Below are positions 6,433 through 36,700 of a stretch of 37,922 bases of DNA, piece by piece. This stretch comes from Dimargaris cristalligena. Its lineage: Eukaryota. Numbering within the stretch: position 1 is the stretch's first letter; every line of letters begins with the position of its first letter. The notes beneath the pieces were generated by a model. That model did not search any database. It saw only the letters and a list, made by a program, of their open reading frames with translations, and was not told the origin of the DNA. Made by a program: the position numbers and the translations under genes. The stretch covers positions 1 to 37,922 of the forward strand of contig ML002365.1 in assembly GCA_003614675.1 (NCBI GenBank). Direction: 5' to 3'.

Positions 6433-6467
6433 GTCGTAGTCGTAGTCGTAGTCGTAGTCGTAGTCGT
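6433..6467. repeat. Hexanucleotide microsatellite (GTCGTA)~5.8 within a degenerate triplet tract (6381-6467)
   Basis: Direct reading: gtcgta x5 plus gtcgt. Confidence 0.95.
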
Positions 6468-12322: not shown

Positions 12323-14774
12323 ATGAATTCCGGCAGTGGGCCCGTCGCTGACAGTAGCCAGACCTTGAACGAAGTGTCGGTCGGCAACCATTTCGACACA
12401 GACACCCACACCATAATGCAGGAGGGTAAGTATAGTGTAACCCGCTTATTTGCGCAACGGTTACTTATGGAAGAATGGTGCATTATCTAACGAGTTATGC
12501 AATACCCTCATTAACGTATATTACCCGGTCCGTTGGTAACTTCATTTTACTCTAGAATTGACGGACTGCGTGTCCAAAAGATACAGCGCCGTTATTGAAG
12601 CGTATACCAATTGGCGCGATAACGAAAACTACGTGCGCCGGGTCCGAGGGCGGCCCGAAATCACACTGAAGGACCTTGCCTTCTTCCGCCTCCTATCCAA
12701 CGAAAAGCTGGACCCGTCCTACCAGACTATTTTGGAATACTTTATCTATAATCCCGACCATTTGCGAGACGCTTTTCACGGATTGGAGTCCAGCCCCCCC
12801 GGCAGTCTGTGGTCGTTGTATTTTGAATTGTGTACCCATCCGGCAATTCCCGCTTTTATCCAGCAGAGCCATTTCCGCGCCGCCTTTTCGGTCTCCGCCA
12901 TTACTTTGGAATGCATGTACGACATTCTCCATCCGTCCACCTTGGCCTCGCCGGCGCTGACCTTATTGATAGGCGGTATCCAGCAACTTATTTTGGATCA
13001 TTTCTGTTCGGGCCGTTCGGCATTCATTAATCCCCGGAAGGTTCTACGCGAGAGCCCCGACTGGCCCGTCCATGATCCCATCGAGCAGAAAATCCTGCTC
13101 AGCCGGTCCAGCGAGGAAATATACGCCAATCCCCGGATTCGGTATACCATCCTTCAGAATTTATCCTGCCATTTGCTATTTTTGGCCAACTTTTTCGATG
13201 GGTTTAAAGCCATGGTTGACGACTTTCCCTACTCTTTCCGGTGGATGGTCAAGCCATTCATCCGGCTGAATATAGTCACCGTACCCCGCGACGAATCTGT
13301 GCAGTACTTTAAGTTTATCTATGACTTGGTCGGCCTTATTCCTATGCACTTGTTTACGGTGGTGCTCGACAAGACCGTCGATTCCTCGCTGATGGACGAT
13401 TTTTTGGACCTTCTGGATATTGTATTTGGCACCCATGTGCGAGAGGTTCCGTATATGTTTCTGTTAAGCCCCTCCATTGACGCGGCTCGGCCGGTTCTCG
13501 TTGCCAAAGCCGTGGCGGCCCTGGATGCTTTCATCGACGTCCCCGATGCCCAAGTTCCCGTCGGACCTATCCCCGATGAGATTGTCGAAATGTTCCGGGG
13601 GGATTTTCCGTTTTCCTACCCTATCAGTGAATCACTTGAGATAATTATCGAGCAACTGCATAGCCTGGTACCGGAAGATAGGCAAAGTAGTTGTCCCTTC
13701 TACCTGTCCGCCGAATTGTGCCCCCACGACGTCAGCGATGTTGCCGATTCGTACATCGATGTGCCCATTTCTTGGAGTCACTACCTCGATACTACTTCCA
13801 CCTTGGGCTCTCCCAACTACACCTACACGTTTGATAGGACTCCAACCTTATCCATTGGCCTCGAGAACACCATCTTAAACCCATCTGACCCAAGTTACAG
13901 CCAACTTCCTGGTTATTTGAGTGACCCACTCATGATATTCCAGCGGATGGCATCCCACGCCAACCCACCGTCTGCTACACTTTTCCTGGACTTTAATGGC
14001 TCTGGGTCCACGGATGCCCCGAATTCGCTAGTCCATGATACGAATCGGACCTTGGCCCGGAATTCCCCCACCTCCCTGTTGGTCAAACAGCGGTATGATA
14101 TGTTTTGTGTGGGACCCTACCATTACCGTGATTTGTATGTCACACTACGCCTGTACCAGGGGGTCTTCGAGTGCGCATCCATCAATAGTTTCGTATCTCT
14201 TAATCAGGTCAACTCCCTTCTGCGTCTGCCCCCGTTACTCCGGCGGGTGTCCCCGGCGTTTGTACTGCGCTGGTCTACCGCCCGAGGATCACTCGACCAT
14301 TACACGCCTACATCCTTTGCGCGGCCCTTGGGCCATTCGGGGAATAAACCACCTAATTCGTGGCCGGACTTGTCGGTGATCAATCCCCTGGACCACCCGT
14401 GGGCCCGGTATCGCCTAGCCAAACTGGTCAAAACCGGGGTCATTGACATCAATAATGACGGTAATGATTCAGCGGTGCCCTACAACCACCAATCGCAGAG
14501 TATCACCTCTAAATACCCCCAAATCACCAACTACCCTTGTATTCATTTTAATAGTCTACGTCTCCTTGTGGTTTCCTTTGACCCAAGCTGCTATGTTTTG
14601 TACATTTACTGCTCCAAGAATTGCTTCGCCCCACAATCCAAGGTCCTGATGCTCGATAGTTTTGCCGGTCAATCCGATTGGACCTGGACCTGGGATCTCC
14701 TGGTTTTCGACATGATGAAATTACAACCATTTCTGAGCTGTGTTATGCAGCATACGTTTGTGGAGCAGCTTTGA
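12323..14774 (+). CDS. Hypothetical protein, two exons (12323-12425, 12556-14774), 773 aa
   Basis: ATG in good context (caccATG) at 12323; donor G|GTAAGT at 12426; acceptor ttcattttactctAG at 12555. The phase-1 junction G+AA gives Glu and runs in frame into the 738-codon ORF. No family recognised. Confidence 0.75.
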
Positions 14775-15991: not shown

Positions 15992-17781
15992 TTAGGCGCG
16001 CTTTTTACGAGGTGTAGTTCGGCCCAATGATTTAAGTCGAGAGTTAGTGGTCGAGGCGGATCTGGAAGTTAAATTAGATCCGAGGAGCCGGTAATTTAGA
16101 TACAGAAAGCTGAGGCCAAACAGGCCGCAGGAGAGCAGTACGTTGGCTACAATGTAGATGTGTGGGTAGCGGGCGGGTGGGGGCACTAGGGCATCCAACA
16201 AGTGGATACTCAGCATGGTGGTAAAGACGGCGTAGATTGCTCGGCGCAGAGGCACATTGGGGATGTTGAAGGGGAAGCCACCCAGCCAGTTCCAAAACAA
16301 AGTGCAGACAGCGTGGGACAGGACAATTTCATCGCGTTGGAGGAGAGTGTACATGCTGTGTATCGGAATCGAATAAAGCCAGGCAAAAAATACCGGGGAA
16401 GGGTATAAGCATATTGTTAAAACCGAAACATGGTCGTGGCTGGTGGTGGGGATCTTTCAGGGGCCTATCCAAAGGAGTGGCTAATGTGAGGATAAGTAGG
16501 GCGGTATGAAAGGATCTCTGGCCATCTTCCAAATTCCGGGACCAACCACCCAAAGTATACCTACCTAAATACAGCGACATTGACGAAGAAGAAAGCAAAT
16601 GTTCGTTCCCGGTCCATTAAAAGCGTGATAGGAAGTGCCGGGAGGAGGATGGATTTCTCGTGCACCTGGAAGGCGAATAAGAAGAAGGCCAGGGCCGAAA
16701 TGGCCAGCGCGTACAAGAAGCGGGGCAGCGTTGGGCGACGGGCGACGGCGTAGCAGGCGGGCAGTAGGGCTGCTAGCGTTACAGCGGCGCTTAATTTCAC
16801 CAGGGCCTCCTGCTTCCACACGTGACGGAGTTTTAGGACCACATTGGACGCACACCAAAAATTGGCCACTTTATCTTCGTAGAGGCCCCGATCTACGGGA
16901 AAGATCCGCTGTAGCACCTGGCTCAGCTGGGCCCAGGAACCTAGGAACGGGCCGAAGCAAATCGCGGTGGTCAGGGCAACGGTGAGACCCAGTTTGACGA
17001 AGAGTTGGATACCCCGGGGGCCCTGAAAGCACTTGCCCAATAAAAAGGCGAATACGGCGGGGGCGAAATAGAGGGCCATTTGCTTGAAGGCCAAGGCTAG
17101 GCAGAAACTAATGGCGCCCAGGATATAGAATTGGCGCTGGAAGGCCACCACAGTCCACAGAACCAGGCCCAGCATCACTGAGTTGTACTGGAAGTGGCCG
17201 TGGTCAATTAAAATGAGGGCAGGCTGCAGAAGAATCAGGAGCCAGAGGGTTTGCCGGTGGACCCACTGCACCGTGTCTGAAGCCGACTTCCCCGCCCGTA
17301 AAAATAAGTAGACAGCGGGAACGTAGACGATCAATTCGCAGACCAAGACGGTGGCGCGCATGAACACTTTGCTATCGGGGGTTTCGATCCCCCGCGACGT
17401 ATCCAGAGCCACCCAGGTCGGATCGATCCAGTGGGCGATAGCCCCACATAGCCAGGACAGGTAGGCGGAGAGCGGGGGATAGTCCAGTCGCCAGTAGGTT
17501 GGACTATAAAAATACCACTGGTCCACGGGGAGGTGGTACGTGAGTTCCATCCAGTGTCGCTGGGCCTCGTAATCGCCGTAGGTCGGCTGCACGCCCCGTC
17601 CCGAATAGCTCCCCAGGGCTACGGCCCACCGGACGTAAATGGCCAGACCAAGGGTGACGAGGCCGGCGGCGGTTGAAAAACCGGGGGCATGGGCGAAGGC
17701 GGTGGCGGCGTAGGTAAACCAGCGTCGGGTGGGCGAAGCGAAGGAATCGCCCAAGGCGGCTGGCTTGCTGGTAGAGCTCAT
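15992..17781 (-). CDS. ALG6: Dolichyl-P-Glc:Man9GlcNAc2-PP-dolichol alpha-1,3-glucosyltransferase (GT57), two exons (17781-16565, 16355-15992), 526 aa
   Basis: Family motifs YGDYEAQRHWMELT, YWRLDYPPLSAY, LILIDHGHFQYNSV, FKQMALY, RIFPVDRGLYEDKVANFWC, FQVHEKSILLP. Intron 16564-16356 (GTAGGT...CACAG) restores FSMYTLLQRD. C-terminal KKRA is a KKXX ER-retrieval signal. Confidence 0.95.
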
Positions 17782-18493
17782 GGTTAAAAACCGATGGGCC
17801 CTTGGTAAGAGTTATGGGTCAACACACCCCACGCACGCAAGGGTTTTAACTTAGAGATACAGTGGTTAGAACAACAATGGCAAATGGACGAATTAGTGGA
17901 AATACATTTACTTAAAATGGGAGAAAAAGGAAGCAGGAGTGTCCATCTAGAGAAACACAAATTCAGCGTACTTCAACCCAGGTATATTTCGTTCAGTGGC
18001 TTTATGAAGGAAGTCCAGCCTGGCTCTTCTCCCTATACTGCAAACATAGTTATTTACCAATGGCCAATCCCCCCAATTAAGTCATGGAAGTCCATAGCCA
18101 CCATTTCTTCGCTGGCTTCGCTTTTCAATAGTCACTCGGCACTTCAGGAGCTATCCCCTCCCGCGTTCATACCAGTTAGACGTCCATAAATTAATAGGCC
18201 AATATTTCCTATGTAGCTCAGTCCATTATAATGAAAATATCCCCAGGCTGACCAGTTGCATAAATTCAGTAAAAATAGCCTTAAACACCCATTTGGTACA
18301 TCCGCCTATTTCAAATTATCTACAAACACAAAGACTCTAAGCAGCTCTCTCTTCAGTACATTGCGGGTAAAAACACCATTGGATATAACTTTCCACTTAT
18401 AGAGAATAAAATCTTGACAGTCGATTAGTTTATTTAGGAAGAAACTAGATGCGGGAAATCTGCGTTACAAAAATAACTACCAAGTGCCATGTA

Positions 18494-20284
18494 TTACCAA
18501 CCCCCTACATAAGGAAAAACCTTGTATTCGTAAAGCAGTTCACCCTTGTCACCATAGTGAAACAGGTCGTAGCAATTTTGGCAGAAGAAACACGGGTTTT
18601 GCCCGCTGTAGAAGTCATCCGCGGTGACCAGGTCGGAGGGTGCATTGCGGCACATACGGCACCGGTGCCGTTTTTGGAAACAGCGGAAGCTCTGGCGGGG
18701 GTAAACGAGAGCGTTATTCGCATCGTGCAGCGGAATGGGCTTGCGTACATCGGTGATGACCAGCGTATGTTCACAGTCGCCCTGGTGCATGAACGTATAA
18801 GGGGTGAAGAGGTCTAAAGTTAAGTCGGCGAACCGGGTTTGGGACATGGGTTTAGTTTTCAAATTGGCGAACTTGGGATCAAACCGGCGGGCATCGGAGG
18901 CCTGCACCCAATCGATAATGGGTTGGCTATAGTCGATGGCGTCGGGATCCCGGTCGTCGGAGTAAAAGGTCTGGTTGATGAAAAAGAAGGAGGCACTAGT
19001 TTTCTTCGTGGCGGTGTTCGGGTTATCCTTCTTGCCCGAGTAGGGAGCGAAATCGGCCATGCAGAAGAGCGCGTCCCGCAGGACGGTGAGGTACTGTCGA
19101 CCTAGGACTTGGAATTCCTGTAGTTTGTTGGTACGACGGTTGCTGAGGTATACGGCGATGTTCAGCACCACTTCGTCATCAGCCAGGGGTTCTTCGCCGA
19201 GTAAAAGCTCCAGGTCGGAGATGGGCCGCCGGGCGGGTAATTTCTTTTGCCGCCGGACCGTTCGGGCAATGGATAAGGGGGTGATTTCCGACTTGGCCGC
19301 TTTGGAAAAGGCGTAGTTGATTTCGGGTTTCATGTAGCTGGGTAGGTCAATTTGGTTTTGGTCGTCGAGGCAGCTAAGGGAGGATCGGTCCATCATTTCG
19401 TAGAGTTCCTTGATTTGATCGTCAAACCGCGTCGGATGGGCTAAAGGACCGGTGCTGTCATTCTCGGGTGGAGTAGGGGGAGCGGCGGGAGTGGGGGTGG
19501 GAGCTTTGGTGGTTTTGGATAGGGATTGGTCTTGGACTTGGTGGACATTGGTGCTTGACCCAACAAGGTCGCTCCCGTTTCTACTGGTAGTGGCTGGGTG
19601 GGTCGGTTCCAGGTACATAATTCCGAAGGGACTTGGCGTGCCCATTAGTTTATCGGGTTCCGAAGAGCTTTCGGGGACTGAAGCTGGCTTCTCCGGTCGT
19701 GGGGTTGGGGGTAGAGGGGGTAGTGATTCGACATTGCTCATTTTGGTGCTGATGGCGAGCGGTCTCCGCCGGGGCGGGGCTTTACCCGCGGGATTTTCGT
19801 TGACAAAGCGAAACACGACTGGTACAGCGGACCGGACAGCCGCGGGCGTGCGTTTATTTCTTTTAGCCCGGGAGTTTCCGCCGGCCGACTCGTCGCTGGG
19901 TTCATCGGTAGACGGAGACGGCGGTTCGTTTTGTTTGCGGGATCGCTTGGCCGGGGGGTTGTTGGGTGGGGTGGCCTCCGGTGTCGCGGGAGAGGACACC
20001 TTGGGGTCATGCCGGGCCTTGAGACGTAGAAACACGGCGGGCTCCTCAAAACAGGTCGAGGGGAATTGGAACGAGTCGTCGAGTTGGCAGCGGGCTTCAA
20101 TGTCACGGAGGGCAGTGCCGCCCTCCCTGGGGCTAGAGGGCGTCCGTTTTTGGCGCAGCCACACCTCCCGCTTGGCCTTTATACGGGCCTGCTTCTCCGC
20201 ATAGGCTTGGGAGTCGGTAATGAAGTCCTTGACGGATACGGTCTGATAGGGCGGATTCAGCCGGCGGTAGGCTAACGATTCCAT
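18494..20284 (-). CDS. SNAPC3: snRNA-activating protein complex subunit 3 (SNAP50/PTF-beta), ~596 aa
   Basis: C-terminal SNAP50 signature QEFQVLGRQYLTVLRDALFC, SFFFINQTFYSD, YTFMHQGDCEHTLVITDVR, and zinc finger CRMC...PCFFCQNCYDLFHY. First ATG (MESLAYRR) at 20284; the upstream GTG start in the track is not used. Confidence 0.9.
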   Translation of the reverse strand: MESLAYRRLNPPYQTVSVKDFITDSQAYAEKQARIKAKREVWLRQKRTPSSPREGGTALRDIEARCQLDDSFQFPSTCFEEPAVFLRLKARHDPKVSSPATPEATPPNNPPAKRSRKQNEPPSPSTDEPSDESAGGNSRAKRNKRTPAAVRSAVPVVFRFVNENPAGKAPPRRRPLAISTKMSNVESLPPLPPTPRPEKPASVPESSSEPDKLMGTPSPFGIMYLEPTHPATTSRNGSDLVGSSTNVHQVQDQSLSKTTKAPTPTPAAPPTPPENDSTGPLAHPTRFDDQIKELYEMMDRSSLSCLDDQNQIDLPSYMKPEINYAFSKAAKSEITPLSIARTVRRQKKLPARRPISDLELLLGEEPLADDEVVLNIAVYLSNRRTNKLQEFQVLGRQYLTVLRDALFCMADFAPYSGKKDNPNTATKKTSASFFFINQTFYSDDRDPDAIDYSQPIIDWVQASDARRFDPKFANLKTKPMSQTRFADLTLDLFTPYTFMHQGDCEHTLVITDVRKPIPLHDANNALVYPRQSFRCFQKRHRCRMCRNAPSDLVTADDFYSGQNPCFFCQNCYDLFHYGDKGELLYEYKVFPYVGGW

Positions 20285-22076
20285 GTTGGGACAATCGACA
20301 AGGGAGGGGGGAGTATTATGGTGGATATACCAAGCAAGAATGGCTACCGAGTCGGCAAATGAGCGCGAAGAAGGCACTTCCCAAGAAGTAATGCTTATGA
20401 GGGGTCCGTTAATTAAATGAGTATGTTACAAAATGGAGACAAGTTTAGAAAAAGATGCATTGGAGATAAAGGGCACGTCCTTTGGGCATGAAGAATAAAT
20501 AAATACAAGAAAAGAGCATATAGGCGGTAGTGGTTGCTGAGTAGAATGAGTCCAATAAAAATCACCAAAATTAATGGTTGAGAATACACTTTATTTTCAA
20601 TGGCCCAGTCCAAGAAAAACGAACGGTGCGGCCTGCGGCAGGAAAAAAAAAGTGAAAGTCCCAATTGGGAGAAAAAATTGAGTACATTATTGGCCCACCG
20701 TCAGCCCAAAAGGACTTAGCTGCCACGTGGTCCAAGGGGACACAGGCCACTACTATATAAAAGGTGGCCAATTCCCTCACGCACGTAGCGAGACTGCTCT
20801 AGAGTAAAAATACCTTACTATATCGAGAGAAATACGTGTATAAATGGTACCGTAAGAAGGGCAGCAAAAACAGGCCGAATATGAAAGAGAAAATTCACAA
20901 TGGTCTTTTATCGGGCATATAATGTATAAACAAGTATGGAACAAAAGCAAGCCAGTGCTTTATTCAACTGGGTGGTCCGGCAGGTACTATAATCATGCTG
21001 ATGGAGGTGGAGTTGAAACGATGGGCTGTTGCCTAAATCATCCCCATACGATAGAGCTCCCAGGCACTATTGGGGAGCTAAAGAACCCTAAACTGAACAA
21101 TGCATGAGATATATCTAAACATTAGCGATATTTCCTCTCTCCATATATATACATACATATGAGTGAAATTCGGACCAACTGTATAAAATTTCTTCCTTAT
21201 TGGTATGACGAAATAGGCGGGTGATTAGATTATAACTAGTAATATGTGCCTTATCCAACAGAATTATCGGTATACAATCTAGTTGAACCTCTCCTATATA
21301 TTTAATATGAAATGGAAACCGAGTGGCAAGAGTCTGACTAGCCGCACGATATTCTAATTCGGTATCGACTTAAAGACCCGTTTATGTTTACACGAGGGAA
21401 GGGGGGCTTTTCCGGGTTAAAGCCAACGCGCTTTAGAGAACCCCGTATCTACCAACATAGTCACGAAAGTCACATTAGCTGCCACGTATCGTGAACTTGA
21501 ATAGTATTTATCGATTAGTGGCCACACTCATCACAGGCTTCTACCCGAAGTCCTGCTAAATACAAGTCCAGGACATATTTTAATGCTATGATTCCAAAAC
21601 CGAGAACCCCTTCAGCCCCACCTAGAGGCCATACTTATCAAAGCCACCTATACTGGCCCACATAATATAGGGTCCACCCAATTAGACAAGACCGATCAGG
21701 CAATGTAAATGGCTTAATCATTTGGTACTTGGATTATATATACTGTAGTATAGGTCAAAAAATAACAGCCTATGGCCAACATTTATTCACTGACGACGGA
21801 TCAGCCTGGTATATATTCACAGGTATGATGGATATACAAAATTACATAGCAATATATGGTAAAGAGAAAGAGAAATATGATGTAAAACCACTGGCCTAAA
21901 TATAGGACGAGGGATGCCTAGTGAAATAATAAGTATATATATTATGCTACGCATGGAAAGAGCGGTAGATTAAGGGGAGAGGGCCCGTTGCTCTGAAAAC
22001 CGATACAATAAATAATTAACAGAGAAAAATCACCAAACCCGCCGAAAGGGATCGGCTCGTACTATTACCCAAGAAC

Positions 22077-23261
22077 TTAAACACAAGTGTAATCGTGGTC
22101 GGACTCCACGGGAGAGGGGTGGTCCACTACGCTCACTACATGATCTACTTGGGTGCCTTGTTTTAGGTGGGCTGTCCGACCCGCATCGACGGCATTGTCG
22201 AACAAACCGGTGGTCTTGGGGCCCATGTCCAGAGTGTGGATAAGGTGGGCCTTTTCCACCGCCCCGCCGGTGTTGGTGAAATCCGAGAAAGTCGACAGGG
22301 TATCCTTACCCGAGACGGTGTGGGTATCGTAGGTCGGGATTTGGGAGCTCTTCTTGTCGGAGAACCGGCGCCAGAAACTGCTTAGACCCACGGTAGGGTC
22401 CTTGTAGGCAGCTAGCATGACGGGATGGAACAGGAAAATGCACAGACAGAAAACCCCGTCAATCTCCAAACTCATGCGGGTATAAAGGTTGAAGTTCCAG
22501 GGCCAGTCAGCATCAGTGTAGGACAGGAACCACGGGGACAGGGCGGAGGGCATATAGGCAATTAGCTGGGTGATGGGATAGGCCATAATCAGGCGGGTGT
22601 TACGAATCAGAGCCGGGGAGTAGGCCGGTGAGACACCGTTCCGAGCGAACTTGCCGATGCCCGCTTGGGAGCCGAAAACCTTGATACAAATCATGATGGT
22701 CATGACCAGAATATAACACATGCCCAAGACCAGCCACACCGAATTCCAGATTTGAAAAATCTTGGTCCAGGTCCTGCCAACGGCCTGGATGGTCACGCCG
22801 CCGAGTTCGCCGTACCGGACGTCGGGGGTGATGAGGGACCACATGGAAAGCAAAAATGCAATCAGGGTGGCCAGGGCGGGGTACCACTGGCGAATCCGGG
22901 CCTGCCGCGGTAACCGATGGAAGAAGACCAGTTGCAGGTCTAGCATAATCATAGCGGTGAAGAAAATAGACCACAGCGGCTGGAAAATAGTCAGCCAAAG
23001 ATTAAAGCGGGCATTGGCGTTCGTTTCCGGAAATGTCACTGCGATTATATCAGACCCGAGAAAATCGTATAAGCTACCCAGTAGAATGGACATGGCTATA
23101 TAGAAGCTGAGCACAAACGAAGGCGATTCTTTGCTAACGGAGTTGTGGTAGCGGACCCACAGGTTCAGGCCCATAACGACCAGGCAACATACGGTCGAGA
23201 TTAAGGCAATGACGGTAATTGCCATCGTAAAGGCTTCGGTTTCGCCGTATACCCCAGCCAT
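22077..23261 (-). CDS. Seven-transmembrane GPCR-like protein (cAMP-receptor-like/Git3-like fungal class), 394 aa
   Basis: Seven hydrophobic segments, short N-terminus, SPSFVLSFYIAMS after TM1, WSIFFTAMIMLDLQLVF (TM3), RLIMAYP (TM6), GVFCLCIFLFHP (TM7), Ser/Thr-rich cytoplasmic tail. Confidence 0.8.
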   Translation of the reverse strand: MAGVYGETEAFTMAITVIALISTVCCLVVMGLNLWVRYHNSVSKESPSFVLSFYIAMSILLGSLYDFLGSDIIAVTFPETNANARFNLWLTIFQPLWSIFFTAMIMLDLQLVFFHRLPRQARIRQWYPALATLIAFLLSMWSLITPDVRYGELGGVTIQAVGRTWTKIFQIWNSVWLVLGMCYILVMTIMICIKVFGSQAGIGKFARNGVSPAYSPALIRNTRLIMAYPITQLIAYMPSALSPWFLSYTDADWPWNFNLYTRMSLEIDGVFCLCIFLFHPVMLAAYKDPTVGLSSFWRRFSDKKSSQIPTYDTHTVSGKDTLSTFSDFTNTGGAVEKAHLIHTLDMGPKTTGLFDNAVDAGRTAHLKQGTQVDHVVSVVDHPSPVESDHDYTCV

Positions 23262-23489
23262 CCTTAACCGCAGGAATGATATAGATATGGGCGGGCGTTA
23301 GGGGGCTACCATACAATGGGAAAATGCACCCAATGTAACAAAGATGTATACTTTGGAGTAGAATTAAACAGGGAAACTGTATAGTATGAACAATCGATCG
23401 AAATATTAACTGAGTAGGAGGGGGGATGGTCAGTGGAAATGAGTGAGGCGGGAATGTGGTACAACAGTGGGGCAGCCGGGTGGGTGCAC

Positions 23490-23495
23490 TTTATA
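23490..23495 (-). promoter_or_regulatory. Putative TATA box of the GPCR-like gene
   Basis: TATAAA(G) on the minus strand ~230 bp upstream of ATG 23261. Confidence 0.4.
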
Positions 23496-26400
23496 GGGTT
23501 GGTGTCGGCTACCAGGGAATGCGGGTTTTTTTCATTTTGACTTGCACTCCTTCGACCACTGACGCGCATGGTGTACTTCCCGGCCTCCCAGTTTGATTGG
23601 GGAGGAATCACCATCTCCTCCTAATCTCCAATGATCCACCCTCTCCCCTGGTCCAGCCATATAGAGGTATTCTCAGGATGCTCCTCAGTACGCTAGTCTC
23701 CTCTAGAGGGAATAGCGGAGAGGTAGTTTATGTCCCCGGCCTTAGCCGTTAGTTTCTTTTCCAGGGATTTAGAGAAGCTGAACTGTCATTGGATGGTCAT
23801 AGTGGCCGACTTCCCACAGCGCCCACTACAGCCCTGGCTATTTTTATTTCGGAACAAAACACCTGGTGGATATAACTTTATCATATGTTCAATGTCCACT
23901 GTGCGCTATCCCGCCGAGTCCTTAAAATGGTCTGTGCAGCGTAACTCCCTTATCCAATGTGACCGGCTAGACGCGACCGAAACCCGGTCGCCAGGCGGTG
24001 GGCACTACTCGACTATACCTGTGGTTTGAACTTGCGATACGCCTATTTTAATAACAGGTCTATATCAGTTACCATCTGGGCTACTCAGACCTACCCAAGC
24101 TAACCACCCCAAACCCCCTGAGTCCCAAGGTTTGGCTATTTTTCCCGAGCCCTAGCTTCCGTATTAACGCTCCTAGCTTCTCATTTCCGAGACCGCTATC
24201 CCCCGCTTAGTTCCTAATTTATTGGCTAGTTTCCGTATGTATACTTACATCCGGGGGTCTATTTCCACATGCCTTCGTATCGAAATGACCTACTGATATA
24301 ACCGAAGCGTATAGGCATGTGTAATGAACAGGTAAAGGTAAAATAGGCGGAATCCATATTTTTTTAACCAGCTAAATTCGTCCTACCTATTAAATTATTT
24401 GATATACAGCTAGGTTGAATCTCCCTCCCATACACATATATATATTTTGCGCTATAGTTGGTTGGGCCTCTAGGCAAATCCCTTGGCTGATTCATCCTCC
24501 ATACCCACGGTAGACCACTAGCTCGAACGGATAGGGCACCAATGACAGCAGTTATCTAATGATTCCCAGTAGGTCGATTGGTCAGCCATTCAATCTCTAA
24601 CTTCTCACCCCCCTCCCCTTTTATCCATTCCTTCTACCGGTCATGTGCGGGATTGGTTTAACAGGTAGTTTTTATACGCCCATGTGCGACATTTACTCAT
24701 GGTCAGTTGTCAGTCCTGCGGACTAATACACGCCAAAAGACCAGCGCCAGGGAAGCTACCGAATTATTCCACACATTGTTTGGTCGGAGATGGGTCAACT
24801 ATTCGGTGCAACTCATCCTACCATTCGTTATCTGGACTAGGCGACTGAACCTCCTTTGGAAACTCCTGAGGCCCCACGATGGCCTCTTGCCCTGTAGAGG
24901 GTATTGGCCATGTACATTGGCCAGGGTAATGGCGGCATCCCCACCACCGAGTCTAGCACCCGGCCCATGGACCAACCCTTTTCTAAAATAAGGAAAGGCA
25001 CGCTGCCAGAGAACTCGAAATAGGTAAGTCAAGGTTAATCCCCCAAACGCCCCGCATTTTTTTCTTTACGGAAAACGAACAGCAGTTGGGCTAGAGGCCG
25101 GTTATGCTCAAGTTTAAACCCACTCCCACCCCGCTCTTCAATATATTAGTATGGACCCATGGGGACTGAGACCTGCTTGAAGTCGTGCTTTATCGAAGGG
25201 CCCCTCCGCCGGACATGACTGCCAATTACTAAAATCATAATGAGCGGCACTTTGAAACTGACCGATTTAGTAAGCAATCCCCTCCTCTTCATGAATCCAC
25301 CTTTGGAAGGTGAGACTAACAATACGAACATCCCCCTCACGTTTATATGTTACCCGCTTGGTTGGATGGCTTATCTAAGGGGGCTAGGGGCTTGGTGTAT
25401 TTCAACCACATGTAAATCCAACCGAATCGGTGTGGAGGAGGGTGTACTGGACTCAGTCGTGGAGAAAACAAATCCCTTTTCCCTGGCTGTTTTTCCTATA
25501 TTTTTATATTTTCTAATTCTTAACCAATTAGGGCAATCCCACAGGTCGATTAAGGTTCGACTTGCCCATGACTAAAGCGGCTCCCGGTTTATTATGGTTG
25601 CCCTTGCATTTACAGCGGATTCTAAATCCAGGTATCAATCATTCTTCAACAATAAACCTAAACAAGGGACCACTCGGCGTTGAAGTAGGAGGGGGGGGGG
25701 GTTGCAAGGCCATAGCTCGGCCGAATTGGGAGGGATCTGCTCAAGCACGTCGGTAAAGTCCATACTCACCTCCTAAATCAAGCACCCGGTGCTGACGACT
25801 TGGTTTAGGAGTTTCCAGTGTTAAGTGAAGAGTAGGGTAAATCCATCCCACTGACCTTCCGATTGTTGTTGAAGCCAACGTCACTATCTACACTGGCCTT
25901 GGATTGTCATCTTTTCTATAATACGTTTATAACGCATGGCCCAGAAACAAACGCATAAAAAGTCAAGGGAAGGTATCAGAATAGTTATCTAAACGGGTAA
26001 GGGGCTAAAGAAAATATAGATAGTGCGATGGATATAATGAGTAATTCTGGAAAAATCCCCCAAAAATCCACATTTTGGTTCAGTTTGATCCAAAGTAGCA
26101 CTTTTATTATTATTTAGCTATTAACTCGGTAAAACAATTATTATCTTATTGAACTTGACCCGATCACCACCTTTGTTTCTTTACAGTCCATGTGGTCTAA
26201 ACCAATTCAAGGTGCGATAGATACCCATGCCAGCACTCTTTGTTCTCACCACTCTAAATGGCCGGTTTTACCTATGCCCCTACTGTTCACATGGTATATT
26301 TACAATAGTACCCAAAAGAAGGACGGCGGGGGCAATTTTGCGAATTACACGTTAATTATAATAGTGACAAAGCAAGAAGCCATTCTCTGGATGCCCTATT

Positions 26401-27848
26401 TTGTCCACTTTGGGAATTTCTCTAAAAATGGGTAGTTAAATCCTACATCCGCTGTTGTCGGCGACCTTTCTTGTCAGGGGGAGTACTCCACGCCCATCCA
26501 CACACCGCCCTTCAATGGCTACGATAGTGGAAAGTGTACTTATTGATACTAACAGGCAAAGGTATTGATAATAATTAGATTATAGGCGGTGATGAATATC
26601 GCCAAGCTGACATGGCTATTTACTACTCTTGATGATTCCTGCATTTCACAATTCTTGCTCTTTTGAAATACGTCAGGGTCGCGTTGCTTCGTTTCCACCT
26701 CACTCTATAACTTTGAGCTACGAGTAACTTAACTGACTGGGATTGTTATGTAGGCGGTTTCATTAAAAAATACTTACCATTATCCACTGCCCGAACATAC
26801 TATTAGATTCAAAGATGTACCAGGGCCTCATCTGTGATCTAAAATATCCACTGACAAGGTATTCAATTAGACCAACTCCGGATTATATAAAGCAGTGATC
26901 AACTGTCGGACTTAAATATTTTCTAATTGACCCAGCTGACAAGTCATGTCATTCAATCTGAGCTAAGGGTCCATACTTGGGCTAAATTGATCTTTTTGAT
27001 GAGGTTGCTAAAAGCAGCCCATCCTTATGGGTTGTATATCTAATAATGCGCCTAGTCAAAAGTGGTAGCACATGTGGGGACCAACTATTAGAAAACCATA
27101 TCTAGGACAGTAGTATATATATATCATCAAATTCACCTACTGGGAAATGTACCGACGCTACACTGGCCTCGCTGAAAATCGAAACTCACTTTCACGGAAC
27201 TAACGCGGACCTAACCAGCACCACTAGTTATTCAAATCATCGACCTGGTATCATTGGAGGTCTGGTACTGGCCAGCTCGAACAGTCCAAAGTTGATTAAT
27301 GTCCATATGCTTGAGTTTAGCAATCTTGCAGGTTTTTATTTAGTCACCATTGACTACCCGTTATACATTCCTGGCGATGGTGTGACAAAATACTCTATTG
27401 GAAACGTAAAGAAGATACGGGTCAGACGGATTAGTTTTTGAGAACTAAAAAAGGATTGCATATAATATTAGAAAAACGACATCGCATAAAAACAAACTCT
27501 AAAATCTAGATAGTGAATTAGTCGAGAACCTTCGATGCTCTATAAAATATATCTACTATGAATTAATAATTGGTTCAAGAATATAGCCACACTAGGACCA
27601 ATACAGAGGGACTTGTTACCACGTTGGTAACACGGAAGTATATGAAAAACTGGATAACATGAATAAATACCTATATATTATTTGGTTGTAGAAACTCGCT
27701 AGCTAAACTAGGGGGGTAGGGAAGGGGTAGAAAAGTAGAAATAAAGCCATAATAGAGGGCGAAATTTGGCTGTAGAGATGGTAAGCGAGTCCAAAGGGAA
27801 TGCCAATGGCTTCCGAGGAATTGCTTGGTTTAGACAAGTATAGTATGA

Positions 27849-29622
27849 TTAGCTAAGGCTGGATTTGGTATTTCGCCAAGCTTGGAGTAGCCTGACAAAA
27901 AACCCGGCGGACCGATTATTGTTACTTGAATAGGGGGGATGCGGTCCGTCAAAGAGTTGGTTGAATTCATCTATATATATATCATCTCCTTTGGAGGAAG
28001 ACCCTGGCAAATGACTAGATTTAACCTGGCCATCTCCATCACTGCCGTACTTCTTCATTGACTGGTACTGTTCCAGGGGTTCGCGGACATAACCCGAGTA
28101 TTCGGCATACTGGAGCGCAGTGGGGTGTTCCAGCACGGCCACGGGGACCGCTTGTAGCAAATCACCGTCAGGGGTAAGATGCTGGAATTGTTCGTTCAAA
28201 AAATAAATGGGGTCCAGAATATCGTCTTGGGTAATATCGCCGGCATCCTGGGATTCGGGCCAGATTTGGACTAGGTAGTTCGCCGCTCGATTCAATCGGC
28301 GCGCTCGCAGTTCGTCGATTAAATTAGCATGTTTCTGGCGGAAGGTCAGCGCTCGGGCAGCCGTTAGGGAGGTATCGTATTGGGCAATAAGATGATCAAC
28401 TTCCAGGACGATTTCCCTCTGGTCATCCAGGGCCGCCATAGTGACGGCCATTTGGGCAAAGTCGTGCACGAAATACGTGAGCAGTGAATTATAATTCCGG
28501 CCGTCGGTCAGATACTGTTGCAGAGTCCCAGAAATGACCTGGAAGATCCCCTGGACGGTTTGCCAATCCCGAAGGCGACAGAGGTACCACAGTACGCCGA
28601 AGATGATTCGGGTCATGGCCTCCCGAAGGTAAAGGCTAAGGGGCAGTTTGCCTGATAGAGCCACCAGATTCAAAGTTCCGGAACTAGTAACTGTTTCGCC
28701 CATTTCCATGCTCCACATTTGCAAATGCAGGTTCATGAGGTCAACGGCCGTGGTGGGAGTCAAGTTGACCAACAGGGGAAAGTAGGCCTGGAGGTCCTCG
28801 GGCACCAATTGGCCCACCGCCACCAGAACCCGGCGGTTCTGGGTCACCAGTCGGTTAAGTCTATTGTCCTTTAGAAAGGCGTGGTAGCGCCCCCCACGTT
28901 TGAGTGTGGTGGGATGGGGTGGGGCCGTTTTGCTAGCTAAACTTTGCACGCATTCTTGGTAGGATTGGGCCCAGCGCTTATCAATCTTGTACAATAAAAC
29001 GTCCCAGGCCTCAATTGGGGCCATGGTGAACCACAGAGGTCCAAAAGATTTCCACTTCTGGGAGGTCCGGATGACCTCCTGGGCGAGTGCCACTGTTTGG
29101 CTCCAATTCCGGTGAATCTAGATTTAAATGGGGTGTGTGCAGGTAGGTCGGGTATAGTGAAAGGTGAAAAAAAGGTAAGATATTGCCAGGGGTTGCGCTA
29201 GCTTGGAGGCGGGGATATCTTTTTGGATGGGTTGATTTTAAGGTGATTTTTCGGGTCCCCCAACGCAATAAAGGTACTATCGTTACGGTTGTTACTCTGA
29301 CTGTCTCGTATAGTTAAATAGGTGGACACACAAGGTGTACCACCTCCCATATCTAAATGTGAATTACCTCGGTCTTGAGATTCCAGCGAGCTTTTTGACC
29401 GATAAAAGATTCTTCCAGAGCCCATGTTCCAAGATTTTCAATGTCAATGTGAGAAAATATTTGACAAATGAGCTCCTCTGGCAAAGTATCCAGGTTCTTG
29501 GGTAGGTGGTTACTATTCGGCTGTGGGAGGGTTGTCGCAATGGATGGTCCTTGACTCGGATTCGCCTCCATCATACAATGGAGGCCCGGGACTATGGCTG
29601 CCACTAAATATAGAGGACGCAT
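27849..29622 (-). CDS. Putative secreted protein with N-terminal F-box-like motif, two exons (29622-29368, 29117-27849), 507 aa
   Basis: Joins the 89-aa and 414-aa track ORFs: donor GAG|GTAATT at 29367, pyrimidine-rich tract and acceptor aaatcTAG|ATT at 29118, both phase 0, giving ...NLKTE-IHRNWSQTVALAQE.... The N-terminus is hydrophobic (MRPLYLVAAIVPGLHCMMEA/NP), with LDTLPEELICQIFSHIDIENL at aa 44-64. Confidence 0.75.
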
Positions 29623-29793: not shown

Positions 29794-29799
29794 TTTATA
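29794..29799 (-). promoter_or_regulatory. Putative TATA box of the F-box-like gene
   Basis: TATAAA on the minus strand ~170 bp upstream of ATG 29622. Confidence 0.45.
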
Positions 29800-30871: not shown

Positions 30872-32035
30872 TTAGGAGGAGTTGGGGAGGGCCAGGAACT
30901 GATTGGTACATGAATGCTCGGATAGGTGGAGACTATCTTTGGGGTTGCAATGGCAGAACTTATTGAGGGCCTTGGAGTTGGGACAGTTGTAGAAGGGCCC
31001 GTGGTAATAGCCCACGTCCTCGAACCAGTGCACTTCTTCCTTCTTGAGGAACATGGCGACGGCCAGGGAATGTACAGGGGCGTCACCCCATCGCTCGTAG
31101 AAGAAGCCGCCGGCCTTGTCCAGATAGTCAAAGTACTCCATGTATTGCTTGGACCGCAACCAAGAGAGGCTGGCGATTTCAAAATTGGACCAGAAATGGC
31201 ACAAATTGTAGTCACCGTCGGTCCCGTTGACCCAGCCCATAAGGTTGTTCTCGGCAATTAGCTCGGGGCGCTGCTCCATGAAGCGCTTGGTGGTTTCCCA
31301 TAGGGTAGGGATAGTGTCGCGGTACTCGAAGAGGGAAATGGTGAAACCATACTTGAGCTGGCGCTCCTGCATCATTAGGAAGGGGTCGTACTGAAGGTCG
31401 CAAAAGAAGTTCACGTCCGGCTCGACCCGCCAGTAGTACTCGTATTCGTCCATGAGGGGATGCCGGAAGAAGAACCCGGACTCGAAGCGGCACATGTGAC
31501 GGTAGGATTCGCTGGATCCGTAGATGATGTCCTTCATTTTGACACGGGTATCGGCGGCCTTTTGCTCGGAAATCCAGCTGGGGAAGCTCCAGTGCTCTTT
31601 GGGAATTAGGCCGTACGAGGTGTTACCACTGGTGATACTGGTGGTGAGCTCTTTGAAGTGGTCCGTGAATTCCTCGTTGTTGAGGAACACGTACGGGTAA
31701 TTGTACTTGTGGTTGAAGCGGTCCTCGAGTTGCCGCAGGGTGGCCCGCATAGAATGCAGGTCATCGTTGCGAACCAGGATGACGAAACAGGCCTTGGCCC
31801 GCCGGGCGGTGTAGGGAGGGGGATTGTATGGCGTGAATGAGGACCAATCGTACTCGGGGGCCTCGGAGTCACCACCTCCCGGGTGGAGCTTCAGCTTGAC
31901 CCGGGGATTCTCATCGGAGCCAGCCTGGAAGCTCTGGGATAGAAACGGGGTCAGCAGGTAGTGGATGGCAACGACGAGGATAAGGACAATGAAAATGACA
32001 CGAAGGCTGAGTTTGCCTAGAATGCCTGAGGCCAT
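30872..32035 (-). CDS. Alpha-1,2-mannosyltransferase, glycosyltransferase family 15 (KRE2/MNT1/KTR family), 387 aa
   Basis: Type II membrane anchor (LRVIFIVLILVVAIHYLL), motifs ACFVILVRN, LEDRFNHKYNYPYVFLN, SYRHMCRFESGFFFRHPL, YYWRVEP, YNLCHFWSNFEI, GGFFYERWGDAPVHS. First ATG MASGILGK at 32035. The specific paralogue cannot be assigned. Confidence 0.95.
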   Translation of the reverse strand: MASGILGKLSLRVIFIVLILVVAIHYLLTPFLSQSFQAGSDENPRVKLKLHPGGGDSEAPEYDWSSFTPYNPPPYTARRAKACFVILVRNDDLHSMRATLRQLEDRFNHKYNYPYVFLNNEEFTDHFKELTTSITSGNTSYGLIPKEHWSFPSWISEQKAADTRVKMKDIIYGSSESYRHMCRFESGFFFRHPLMDEYEYYWRVEPDVNFFCDLQYDPFLMMQERQLKYGFTISLFEYRDTIPTLWETTKRFMEQRPELIAENNLMGWVNGTDGDYNLCHFWSNFEIASLSWLRSKQYMEYFDYLDKAGGFFYERWGDAPVHSLAVAMFLKKEEVHWFEDVGYYHGPFYNCPNSKALNKFCHCNPKDSLHLSEHSCTNQFLALPNSS

Positions 32036-33701
32036 GGCAGCGAGGGGCGGCCGAGTGACTGGGCAGGGAAAGCAGGGTGTGTGACAAGGGAAATGTGCGC
32101 GCCAGAGCAAGTCGAGGAACGAGGATGGTGAACGAGAGAGAGGTAGTGACGGGAGACGAAAGCTCCGCGATGGAGATGGACTAAGTGGAGGTTTGGGCAG
32201 AGGGAATGAAAGCAGACGGCTCGTCGACCTGGAAGGGAGGCAATCGAGGAAAACCTAAAAGAAGGATACAGTAGGCATTGAGGTTTCTCAATATGCGGGC
32301 AGGCGGGGAATATAATAGGTACGTCACATTTGATGGGAGTGACAGGGGGGAGCGGGAAGGATGGGCCTTGGCGACTAGAGTGGGTAGAGTAAACCCTAAG
32401 AAATCCCCTTTCACCAAGACAGGCTCTACAAAGTGGTTGGCCGTAGCACCAACTTCCCCCAAATAAAACACGTGACGAAGGCGGGTACTGTGTAATATAC
32501 CCCATTCATAAGGAAGGGTTTCTTAGTTATTATTTATCCCTAATTAATCGTGATAAAGTGTTTGGGCCATTGTGATCACTAGGTCTTCCAACCCATATCA
32601 CTAGCCCACCATACTCAAACTCGCACCATATATAAGGATCTATTATTTCCTAGATTTGTTATAATATCTGCTACAGGAGGAAGATGGCCATATATATGGA
32701 CCACCACTTCCCATCACTACTACTCACCTATAGAGGCTGTTTGATTCGGCCCAGGGGGGGGATGTCCATGCGCTCTATTACGAGAATCCTACATATCAAC
32801 CACCTTTCCCGAAAAATAGGCTAGTGATACTACTGTCTCTCGATCTACTCAGGCCGTAATCAGAAGGCATATACCAAGCCATTTAGTTAGTTATTGCTAT
32901 TGCACAAGGCGTCATTCAATTCGTCGACACCCAGGCCCTCTGTTGGTTAAACGGTTTTACCATAAACATATATATTGTTTCTAAAATCTCTACGTTCTGG
33001 AAACAATGAACTCGGTTAGGGCCTATGGATAGATCTGGACGTAGTTGGACAGCGGTACCAATTGTCCATGAGTTAACATAAATCGGTTTCTTAAGGTGCG
33101 AACATGATGTGCCACCAGCATTTTTATCAATTGCATCGACAGTTTCAGTATCACCCATTTACCCTCAAAATCAACTATTGCTGTCGCGCTTTTAATAATC
33201 TAGATTACCACACCCAAATCTATGGGCTTTGGAGCTGTTGGACTTTGGTCTGTAAACCCTGCATCTATACTTGACCCAACTCCGACGTATTCACCGGCTC
33301 TGTTGTGCAATCCCTTCTCCTAAAATCCATAGTTGTAGAAGGTTGTTGTCAAACTCCCTTTGGGGCCAACAAACCACCCCCATTCGATATCTACAAGGCC
33401 AATTCCAATGAAAGGGGCAACCACACGAACCCCCGCTCCTCAGTGGTTGCTCCATGGTCGCCATTAACACTCAATGTTTTCATTTTTCGCCCTCTTCTCT
33501 CCCTATCTCACTCACTCTCTCTCTCTGCCGAAACTGATTCGTGTTTCCTTTGTTTACCAGTTTCGTGGGCATTGCTTCTCTACTATCTTTCCACTTTATT
33601 TCGCCAGTGTATTGTTACCACCTTCGCGGGGCGTATTTCCAGTTAGTTCACTTCCCGGCTCTCGATATTTGGAAAGCCCCATTCGAACCATTCGGTTGTA
33701 C

Positions 33702-36700
33702 ATGTTGACCACCATGACCGAAGTTCAGGTAAGTTATGGACCCCAGGTCGCAGAAGGAATCCCCGTGAGGAAACGCGTTTACAGAGCGACGGCTAGTTCG
33801 GATTACTCCTAAGGGTAGTGGGGGTTATGGTAGCCTTGTTCCATGCCATTGTATACTATACATGCGCTCTGGTTCATCTTCCATTCCCTCCCCCTCAATA
33901 GCCGGTACTGTCTTTTCTCCCCACTTCTAATTTGACCCCTGACTCACCGAATTCTCCACCCATGTTGCAAAATTTGCCCTTAATGTCCGGGACCTGTCCC
34001 TGCCGTACCGCATTTCCATCGGAATTAGCACCCCTCTGATATCAATGACACCGAGTCCGAGAATGCCACTCCTACTCCCGAAGAGCTCGTTACATCGATG
34101 AAGCTCCGCGACGAAAGTGACACGGAACGGTCCGCTCGTCGGTTTGCCTATTTACTGACCCTAACCGACCTGTTTTCCCATTTTCTGCGGGACTTCGTAA
34201 CCAACCCAGAAATGAAGGCGGCCATCGATCGTCATTTGGCGGAACATCATAAACCCGGCCAAAAGGCCGGCTCCCGGCGCCACCGTAAAACGGAGAAGGA
34301 AGAGGATGCCGAGCTTCTCGAAGGCGAAACCCATACATCTAATCAAGTCGCCCAGGTCTTTAGCGATTCCCCCCGTTATGTCGAAGGGGGCACCATGCGC
34401 GACTACCAAGTCCAAGGGCTTAATTGGATGATCTCGCTCCACAATAACAACATCAACGGTATCCTGGCTGATGAAATGGGCCTAGGCAAGACCCTGCAAA
34501 CCATTTCCTTCCTGGGTTATCTGAAGCTCTTCCGGGGAATTTCCGGCCCGCACCTGGTGGTGGTCCCCAAATCCACCCTCCACAACTGGCAAAGCGAATT
34601 CCGAAAGTGGGTGCCGGCCCTCAACTCGTTCATTTTCCACGGCAGCAAGGAGGAGCGTCCCCGACTCATCCAGGAACGCCTGGTCCCACTCTCGTTCGAC
34701 TGCTGTATCACCACCTACGAAATGTGCCTACTGCACAAGAGCGACTTCAAGAAAATCAACTGGGAGTACATTGTCATTGATGAGGCCCACCGCATTAAAA
34801 ACGAAAACTCCAGCCTGTCCCAGATGATCCGCTTGTTCAACACCCGCAACCGCCTATTGATTACCGGTACTCCGCTGCAGAACAACCTCCACGAGCTTTG
34901 GGCACTGCTCAACTTCCTGCTCCCCGACGTATTTCGATCGGCCGAGGACTTCGATTCGTGGTTCCAGGTGACGGACGGTAACGACCAGAATACCCTTGTC
35001 ACCCAGTTGCATGCCGTTCTGCGGCCCTTCGTGCTCCGGCGGGTCAAGGCCGACGTGGAGCACTCCCTGCTCCCCAAAAAGGAAATTAACCTCTATGTGG
35101 GCATGAGCGGGATGCAGAAGAAGTGGTACCAGAAGATTCTGGAGAAGGATATAGATACGGTGAATGGGGCTGCCTCGGGTAAAAAAGAGGGCAAAATGCG
35201 CCTCATGAATGTCGCGATGCAACTCCGCAAGTGCTGTAACCACCCCTACCTCTTCGATGGGGCCGAACCGGGACCCCCATATACCACCGACGAACACCTC
35301 GTGGACAATTCCGGCAAAATGCTGATTCTAGACAAGCTGCTCAAACGAATGCAAGCCCAGGGATCCCGCGTACTCATCTTCAGCCAAATGAGCCGCATGC
35401 TCGATATTCTGGAGGACTACTGTATTTTCCGGGATTACAAATACTGCCGAATCGATGGCCAAACCGACCACGAGGACCGTATCGAGGCCATAGATGCGTA
35501 CAACAAACCCGGCAGTGATAAATTCATTTTTCTGCTGACCACGCGGGCGGGTGGTCTGGGGATTAATCTGGTGACCGCCGACGTGGTTGTCATCTACGAT
35601 AGCGACTGGAACCCCCAGGTCGACCTACAGGCCATGGACCGAGCCCACCGTATCGGCCAAACCAAACAGGTCTATGTATTCCGATTCGTCACGGAGAATG
35701 CCATCGAGGAGAAGGTCATTGAAAAGGCCTCCCAGAAGTTACGCCTAGACCAGTTGGTGATCCAGCAGGGCCGGCTGTCCCAGCAACAGACCACCACCCG
35801 GGGGGACCTGCTGACCATGATCCAGCATGGCGCCGAAAAGATCTTCCAGAGCGGAACCCAGGACGACGAGGGCTTAGCGGACGCCGACATTGACACCATC
35901 TTGGCCCGCGGTGAGGCCAAAACCGGTGAACTCAACAAGAAGTACCAGACGCTGGGTCTCGACGACTTGCAAAAGTTTTCCCTCGATACGATTAACTCCT
36001 ACGAATGGGAAGGGGAGGACTATCGCGGTAAGCGCAAGGCCGAAATCATCGGACTGAACTGGATTCAGCCGACCAAACGGGAGAGAAAGTCAAACTACTC
36101 CGTCGACGAGTACTACCGCGAGGTTTTCCGGGGCCCTCCCAAGGCGCCCAGTGCCCCTCGGCTGCCCAGGCCCAAGAAACTGGCCATCAATGACTTCCAG
36201 TTCTACCCGTTGGAACTCAAGGAACTGTTGGAGAAGGAAGCCGACTACTATCGCAAGTCTATCAACTACAAGGTTCCCTACGAGGGAGACCCGGCCGCCG
36301 ACAGTGTCGAAGTCCGGGAGGCCAAGGAAGCCTCGCAGGCCGAGGAACAGGCCAAGATTGATCAGGCGGAGCGCCTAACTGACGCCGAACTCGAGCTCAA
36401 GGAGCGCCTCTCGACCGACGGTTTCGAGCACTGGAACCGCCGGGATTTCCAGGCCTTTATCCGGGGTTGCGAAAAGTACGGGCGGACTAACCTAAAGGCC
36501 ATTGCCGATGATTTGGAGGGTAAAACCCTGAACGAGGTCCGGGCCTATAGCCAGGTGTTCTGGAAACGGTATCCTGAATTGGCCGATCACGAGCGTCTCT
36601 TGGCCAACATTGAAAAAGGGGAGGCCCGTCTCGCCAAACAGCGGGAAATCCAGCGGATGCTCACCCAGTTTGTCCGGTCGTGCGAACACCCCCTCCAGCA

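Follow-up and report, generated by a model that had tools for sequence, protein, structure and literature searches.

Dimargaris cristalligena is a haustorial mycoparasite whose host is another fungus, and a 37,922-nt stretch of its genome (contig ML002365.1 of assembly GCA_003614675.1, all of which we analyzed and call the window) carries a two-exon gene at 27849..29622 on the minus strand. Judged by homology to its paralogues, both public models of this gene truncate or misread it at the 5' end. The corrected product begins with a signal-peptide-like N-terminus, continues through a linker into an F-box-like segment, and ends in a predicted all-alpha domain shared by a family of 13 loci. The overall explanation that we favor is that the gene belongs to a candidate secreted effector family of the mycoparasite, a reading drawn from sequence features whose chances of being right and wrong we regard as about balanced. 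The features of the gene, all on the minus strand, are as follows.

29368..29622, minus strand: exon 1, 85 codons, with start ATG at 29622-29620 (translation and family homology)
29118..29367, minus strand: intron, 250 nt, GT-AG, with donor GTAATT and acceptor TAG
27849..29117, minus strand: exon 2 in its read-through form, 422 codons plus a stop at 27851-27849
29575..29622, minus strand: signal-peptide-like N-terminus, residues 1-16 (hydropathy and -3/-1 scan)
29494..29574, minus strand: Pro/Ser/Thr/Asn-rich linker, residues 17-43 (sequence)
29368..29493, minus strand: exon-1 part of the F-box-like module, residues 44-85, with the LPxE helix-1 motif at 29493-29431
28062..29105, minus strand: conserved, predicted all-alpha family domain, exon-2 residues ~5-352 (alignments and AlphaFold2)
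27852..28022, minus strand: C-terminal 57 codons, present in the read-through form only and unverified

The first-pass annotation of this DNA, made from its letters alone, had proposed that the first exon is joined in frame to a second through a 250-nt GT-AG intron, and both the coordinates and the homology to 12 paralogues bear this out. An 89-residue open reading frame (ORF) that begins with ATG lies at 29353..29622 on the minus strand, with an in-frame TAG four codons upstream of its ATG; a GT stands at 29367-29366 and an AG at 29119-29118. The second ORF exists as well, but it had been given as 414 residues long and measures 422 from stop to stop, or 391 from its first ATG. Exon 1 matches the N-terminus (residues 1-76) of the closest paralogue, the 510-residue P0017, with a BLASTP expectation value (E) of 1e-05, and this match is collinear with that between exon 2 and the P0017 domain (E 6e-48, 31% identity). 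When a hidden Markov model (HMM) of the N-termini of 10 other paralogues, with the target gene excluded, was run against the 760 six-frame ORFs of the window, the exon-1 ORF was the only significant match (E 1e-06; next best ORF, 0.52), and an HMM restricted to the four F-box-like paralogues also ranked it first (E 0.0012; next best, 0.33). Alignments to exon 2 begin upstream of the annotated start, Met 29024, in all 12 paralogues, and five of the 12 reach the first six exon-2 codons, which include a conserved Trp at exon-2 residue 5. Directly upstream of exon 2 is an in-frame TAG (29120-29118), and since only one AG falls between this stop and the conserved Trp codon, the acceptor is fixed. 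Past the last residue homologous to P0017, a single GT, in phase 0 at 29367, occurs before the stop. The paralogue homologies are thus compatible with one GT and one AG only, which fixes both splice sites uniquely. At the level of sequence homology, these results confirm that the two-exon gene joined by the 29367-29118 intron is real.

The 3' end is less secure. Exons of 85 and 422 codons add up in frame to the 507 residues that had been claimed, but the last 57 codons (28022-27852) lack support, so that this read-through length is not established. Their coding score is -0.06 per codon (real coding windows, mean 0.357 and 5th percentile 0.055; off-frame windows, 95th percentile -0.105), and their GC content at third codon positions (GC3) is 0.42. 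A resemblance between the read-through tail and the tails of paralogues, suggested by MAFFT alignment, was dropped as support for the stop at 27849 after a shuffle test against eight paralogues gave z scores of -1.3 to 0.7. Because the tail resemblance is no better than that of shuffled sequences and the coding score is low, we treat the 3' end, and hence the length of 507 residues, as provisional. A short, basic, amphipathic-looking helix ends several family members (the target, at 27852-27910, and P0019, P0018, P0027, and P0017), a similarity that is not statistically significant.

The two public models of the locus disagree with this structure and with each other. The Joint Genome Institute (JGI) model, P0003 (364 residues), starts at Met 29024, lacks exon 1, and splices 28025-27671 into a 30-codon exon without similarity to any paralogue. 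The model from the second assembly, P0025 (384 residues), shares the donor at 29367 with the intron proposed here; it reads exon 1 in another frame from an ATG at 29425, so that its N-terminal 19 residues come from a frame without similarity to any paralogue, and its acceptor at 29093 skips the conserved Trp. At their 3' ends the 364-residue and 384-residue models (27575-29425) use different introns and short terminal exons that are discordant with each other and with the read-through form. Between the two strains, 370 shared residues differ at one position (D to N). The term 'transcriptom' is absent from the main text of the 2018 genome paper, so the public models were probably built without RNA support. 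Elsewhere in the family, the P0011 locus is represented in the second assembly by a single 673-residue model (P0023) in which it is fused to an upstream gene resembling HAUS1, an augmin subunit; this fusion suggests another mis-modelled 5' end. The locus shows that public proteomes contain the candidate effector family only in part, since 5' exons that encode the putative signal peptide and the F-box-like motif are either missed or read in the wrong frame.

A HMMER search with exon 2 against 1.84 billion representative sequences found 12 homologues (E 1.1e-24 to 2.6e-06, 24-32% identity), all of them named D. cristalligena and drawn from two assemblies; the library contains a single sequence for each cluster at 50% identity, and sister species may be hidden inside clusters. 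Word-indexed protein searches returned the self record or nothing despite the existence of 12 paralogues, and this insensitivity leaves them without bearing on distribution. With the longest model taken for each locus, the family comprises 13 loci, and tblastn found no further copy within the window. In a maximum-likelihood tree the terminal branches are very long (median, 1.28 changes per column), and the loci fall into two supported groups, four that lack the F-box-like motif and a set of nine (98/97). As far as these comparisons reach, the family is a lineage-specific multigene expansion in the parasite, with restriction to the species uncertain, and its members are diverging fast.

Common to every member is a domain of ~350 residues marked by the motifs APLExWD, FPL, LWxLY, WP, and DGDLxQAVP. 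AlphaFold2, given exon 2 in a 13-sequence alignment, predicts with confidence an almost all-helical structure with a small beta hairpin (predicted local distance difference test score, pLDDT, 76; predicted template modelling score, pTM, 0.75). The first-pass description of the C-terminal region as mostly helical and unrecognised agrees with this model and with a run of empty searches. Pfam contains no family for the domain in exon 2 or the paralogues and assigns them no leucine-rich repeat (LRR) or ankyrin repeat family; a PDB sequence search returned no relative with the domain profile (one match, at E 0.59) and none with the single sequence; and Foldseek gave no match at E <= 0.001 with either of the two structural models. 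The best VIA-align Z scores, 7.5 and 8.9, cover ~70-100 aligned residues of generic helical proteins and lie in a range that is uninformative for helical proteins. These fold searches covered the domain and did not sample the N-terminal F-box-like part. In the ESM Atlas, exon 2 scored at best 0.84, with unnamed bacterial clusters and below the useful range. UniProt names the paralogue P0022 after an MpaB/Lcp oxygenase domain, an assignment that we could not reproduce: no Pfam match appeared at E <= 1, no such chain occurred among the 50 fold matches listed, and the family alignment contains no invariant His or Cys.

Ahead of this domain, the target begins with Met-Arg and a 12-residue hydrophobic core (residues 3-14), with possible cleavage after Cys16 in a heuristic hydropathy and -3/-1 scan. 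The hydrophobic N-terminus that had been pointed out is evident from its best 9-residue Kyte-Doolittle mean, 2.46; the 95th percentile among 466 internal windows from family members is 2.37. A signal-peptide-like start is found in 10 of the 13 loci, each with Met followed by Lys, Arg, or a similar residue, a core of ~11-16 residues, and small residues thereafter; the best means in these loci range from 1.87 to 2.84, and seven of the 10 exceed the same percentile. The resemblance to a signal peptide noted earlier is therefore upheld as a matter of appearance and recurs across the family. Cores of ~11-16 residues are too short for a membrane anchor. The three loci without such a start are P0026 (a partial model with no Met), P0011, and P0019, which may be 5'-truncated as the target was. 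After the core comes the Pro/Ser/Thr/Asn-rich linker (residues 17-43), which matches the short Pro/Thr/Ser linker of the first-pass annotation and contains the alternative starts Met17 and Met18; its equivalent in P0017 (residues 20-41) is predicted by AlphaFold2 to be disordered, with pLDDT <50. From these features, the target protein is probably secreted.

The linker leads into the motif LDTLPEELICQIFSHIDIENL, residues 44-64 of the target. L-P-x-E-(I/L)-x-x-x-I-(F/L) is the helix-1 signature of F-boxes, and target residues 47-56 fit it. On exon 1, Pfam gives PF12937 (F-box-like) at E 0.0015 and 18.7 bits and PF00646 (F-box) at E 0.022 and 15.1 bits; the scan covered exon 1 alone or the paralogue models, and helix 3 of the spliced target runs on into exon 2. 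Among the 135 ORFs of at least 75 residues in the window, the F-box match is unique to exon 1, and just one other ORF without an above-threshold family has a sub-threshold match at E <= 0.01, a low-complexity Mucin. When a profile of the five F-box-like N-termini was compared with 177,635 PDB sequences, the F-box of FBXL2 ranked first (E 0.044) and that of FBXW7 fourth (E 1.2), with the helix-1 motif region of the target aligned to FBXL2 residues 14-33. For residues 38-85, the ten best named ESM Atlas clusters all belong to the F-box family or clan (0.91, 0.87, 0.86), and UniProt names P0004 and P0017 'F-box domain-containing protein'. In the AlphaFold2 model of P0017, a helix at the signal peptide is followed by the disordered linker and by three short helices (43-51, 57-67, and 70-82; pLDDT 60-74). 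By eye and alignment, an LPxE(I/L)xxxI(F/L)-type stretch can be made out 20-30 residues past the signal peptide in the target, P0017, P0004, P0019, and P0021, and in all of these except P0019 a signal-peptide-like N-terminus precedes it. Across the exon junction, two Trp residues are spaced 10 residues apart, which we take to match the usual end of an F-box module and use as a lead only. The F-box-like motif that had been claimed thus stands insofar as the helix-1 signature and several weak methods agree on it, but it does not reach the Pfam cutoff. We conclude that the segment probably descends from an F-box; whether it retains Skp1 binding is much less certain.

A number of observations weigh against a secreted F-box effector. 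Both Pfam scores for exon 1 are below their gathering cutoffs (18.7 vs 24.3 bits for PF12937; 15.1 vs 20.5 bits for PF00646), and the HMMER check against these two families proposed at first pass thereby gave sub-threshold matches. The match is limited to positions 1-22 of a 47-position profile, and helices 2 and 3 stand five residues further apart than in FBXL2 because of an insertion; the first-pass annotation had already noted that the second half of the F-box is diverged. The ESM match has 119 of 256 features in common, as is typical of a distant relative or a chance hit. Only two of the five F-box-like members have any Pfam match at E <= 1, namely the target and P0017 (12.8 bits, E 0.1); P0004, P0019, and P0021 have none, and P0004 lacks the Leu-Pro pair. 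Eight paralogues do without the motif, which argues that it is dispensable for the family's function, and the F-box-like members do not group together on the family tree, where the label requires four changes and 327 of 500 shuffles do equally well. The hydrophobic core of the target is broken by Pro and Gly and is followed by the two in-frame Met codons at 17-18, and all paralogue N-termini are probably gene predictions made without RNA support. Codon bias in exon 1 is weak, with a coding score of 0.010 per codon, which falls between those of real coding and off-frame windows, a GC3 of 0.46 compared to 0.62-0.73 in six training ORFs, and a score of -0.16 for its first 16 codons, the lowest of the exon. 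Finally, classical fungal effectors are small and rich in Cys, and this protein is neither.

Our preference for a candidate effector family takes these points into account. A secreted, lineage-specific, and fast-diverging family in a biotrophic parasite has the profile of an effector family. According to passages of one account, members of the Dimargaritales parasitize Mucoromycota and some Ascomycota by means of an appressorium and a biotrophic haustorium inside host hyphae (PMC9866270), a lifestyle that makes a host-directed role biologically reasonable. In the simplest form of this proposal, the protein would enter the secretory pathway, lose its signal peptide, and be released at the parasite-host interface to act, as effectors do, outside the cell that produced it. 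In a more elaborate form, it would enter the host hypha, where the diverged F-box would dock on host Skp1 and the alpha domain would present a host protein to the host Skp1-cullin-F-box (SCF) ligase. The idea of such a hijack, which the first-pass annotation had raised without specifying the host, comes from the order of modules (signal peptide, F-box-like stretch, and putative substrate-binding domain) and from precedents; as a step on its own it is plausible, and we advance it tentatively, as something considerably less probable than not. The complete picture, a private family of Sec-secreted F-box proteins that cross into the host hypha, dock on Skp1, and cause degradation of host proteins through a new all-alpha domain, has to be called unlikely.

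One alternative keeps the family in the secretory pathway, as secreted or lumenal proteins, and gives the F-box-like stretch no role in an SCF ligase; it would be a decayed relic or a helical cap. The protein's site of action would lie outside the cell or at the haustorial interface, where a conserved surface of the alpha domain that contains Glu, Asp, and Arg might, for example, bind a component of the host wall or membrane. That eight of 13 members have the domain without the LPxE motif, and that Pfam aligns only half a domain, at a score below its cutoff, both fit this account. So does the counterpart of F-box helix 3 (xxIGxxARxxL), which is kept in members without helix 1 (P0022, P0018, and P0020), as befits an integral structural element, and the F-box-like helices pass unbroken into domain helices in the P0017 model. 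However, four independent weak signals all indicate an F-box and nothing else, the helix-1 motif of the target is a textbook one, and the Pfam, PDB, and fold searches found no extracellular-type domain, Cys pattern, or enzyme signature. On balance we consider this alternative a serious one and yet doubtful.

According to a second alternative, the protein would work inside Dimargaris cells as an ordinary F-box protein, with translation starting at Met17 or Met18 or with an uncleaved N-terminus, and would serve as a substrate receptor of the fungus's own SCF ligase. F-box proteins are normally cytosolic or nuclear, which speaks for this view, as do the low coding score of the first 16 codons, the context of Met18 (A at -3, G at +4), and the P0019 and P0011 models without a hydrophobic N-terminus. 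Against it, the most upstream ATG has A at -3 too, and a scanning ribosome would meet it first; nine other loci have clear signal-peptide-like N-termini; a single model of the closest paralogue, P0017, contains both the signal peptide and the F-box-like stretch; and P0011 and P0019 are perhaps 5'-truncated as the target was, with P0011 having an alternative model fused to the HAUS1-like gene. We judge an intracellular role improbable. A third possibility, that exon 1 is no part of the gene and that a public start is right, be it Met 29024 or the ATG at 29425 in another frame, can be set aside as very improbable: two annotation pipelines chose those models and the codon bias of exon 1 is weak, but paralogue homology runs 31 codons upstream of Met 29024 to the in-frame stop, P0025 opens with 19 residues unlike any paralogue and skips the conserved Trp at exon-2 residue 5, and the HMM of family N-termini picks out frame 0 of exon 1 (E 1e-06).

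The genes around the candidate effector gene have, by their predicted products, ordinary fungal housekeeping functions. Pfam searches of the window ORFs identified a KTR-type mannosyltransferase (30875-32254, minus strand), an ISWI ATPase (34029-37004, plus strand), an ALG6/ALG8 glycosyltransferase (15995-17811, minus strand), and SNAPC3 (18497-20425, minus strand). The ALG6/ALG8 gene is split into two Pfam-matching ORFs, and joining them requires an intron of ~200 nt, so long introns occur in this genome and the 250-nt intron of the target gene is not out of place here. A TATAAA at 29794-29799 on the minus strand, ~170 nt upstream of the proposed start codon, sits in the 1.25-kb gap between the target gene and the KTR mannosyltransferase gene. 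The downstream flank, 23300-27850 (~4.5 kb, 40-47% GC), has no ORF of >118 codons in any frame and no Pfam match, and a search for tandem repeats and tRNAs found none there; a gene-poor region thus adjoins the candidate effector gene. Among the remaining ORFs, one of 1186 codons (2588-6145, minus strand) has only a sub-threshold PH-domain match; just upstream of it, overlapping ORFs at 6093-6849 (minus strand) contain a tandemly repeated hexamer (CGTAGT x 10.5, 6408-6467) along with a low-complexity 'Mucin' match. An ORF of 406 codons (22080-23297, minus strand) has a weak match to 7tm_3 (class C G-protein-coupled receptor-like; E 0.00088, below cutoff), and one of 744 codons (12540-14771, plus strand) matches no Pfam family.

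To our knowledge, almost nothing is known of host manipulation by biotrophic mycoparasites among early-diverging fungi. A full-text literature search found nothing that combines Dimargaris cristalligena and F-box, and a search of the literature on secreted F-box effectors and mycoparasite effectors turned up only bacterial, insect, and mycorrhizal cases. Two genome papers discuss proteases, carbohydrate-active enzymes, and secondary metabolites, and the terms 'effector', 'secret', and 'F-box' are absent from the main text of the 2018 genome paper. What is new here, on the evidence of sequence comparison and prediction, is the C-terminal fold, the fungal host, and the corrected gene models. If the hijacking proposal is true, these proteins would be the first ubiquitin-ligase-mimic effectors in a fungus-on-fungus interaction, as far as our searches show. 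A functional F-box would extend F-box mimicry to hijack a host SCF ligase, as practiced by bacteria and a gall midge, to parasitism between fungi, and would give SCF ligases a substrate-recognition fold not seen before. With a non-functional F-box, what is left is a lineage-specific, fast-evolving, predicted secreted family that would still be of interest for mycoparasitism.

The SSGP-71 proteins of the Hessian fly reportedly carry a classical signal peptide. They combine an F-box with LRRs and interact with host Skp, and some members have no F-box, according to passages of one report (PMC4617103). As far as those passages describe SSGP-71, the Dimargaris family is like it in being a large, lineage-specific family of a eukaryotic parasite in which an N-terminal F-box, or F-box-like segment, is followed by an interaction domain and some members lack the F-box. 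It is unlike SSGP-71, with its cyclin-like F-box, LRRs, and demonstrated host Skp binding, in having a sub-threshold F-box, a predicted all-alpha fold, and a fungal host. Lineage-specific multigene expansion, typical of host-delivered F-box mimics, is seen here in the 13 loci, and no Pfam match to the C-terminal LRR or ankyrin repeats of mimics of the SSGP-71 or RipG/GALA type was obtained for exon 2 or any paralogue.

Agrobacterium VirF and Legionella AnkB are F-box effectors of bacteria. Bacteria deliver such effectors, which have LRR or ankyrin domains, through type III or type IV systems, whereas the target would use the eukaryotic Sec pathway. The logic proposed here is the same as that of the Ralstonia RipG/GALA effectors, by which a parasite F-box recruits host Skp1 and the SCF ligase, and in the passages cited the F-box of RipG7 is essential for virulence (PMC4617103).

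A fungal case is NLS_30765 of Rhizophagus clarus, which passages of the original report describe as a 542-residue effector candidate from an in-silico secretome, with F-box-like PF12937 at 2.8e-07, proposed to interfere with host signalling (PMC4746824). On that description, the two are alike as in-silico secreted fungal candidates of similar size with an F-box-like domain, and they differ in that NLS_30765 is a single candidate with a significant Pfam match from a plant mutualist. The HMMER search with exon 2 gave no match outside Dimargaris and thus no sequence relation between NLS_30765 and the family. With ordinary fungal F-box proteins, the receptors of SCF ligases, the target shares the order of an LPxE(I/L)xxxIF helix-1 motif followed by a C-terminal domain, which in those proteins binds substrates; they have no signal peptide, whereas here a signal-peptide-like N-terminus stands ahead of the motif.

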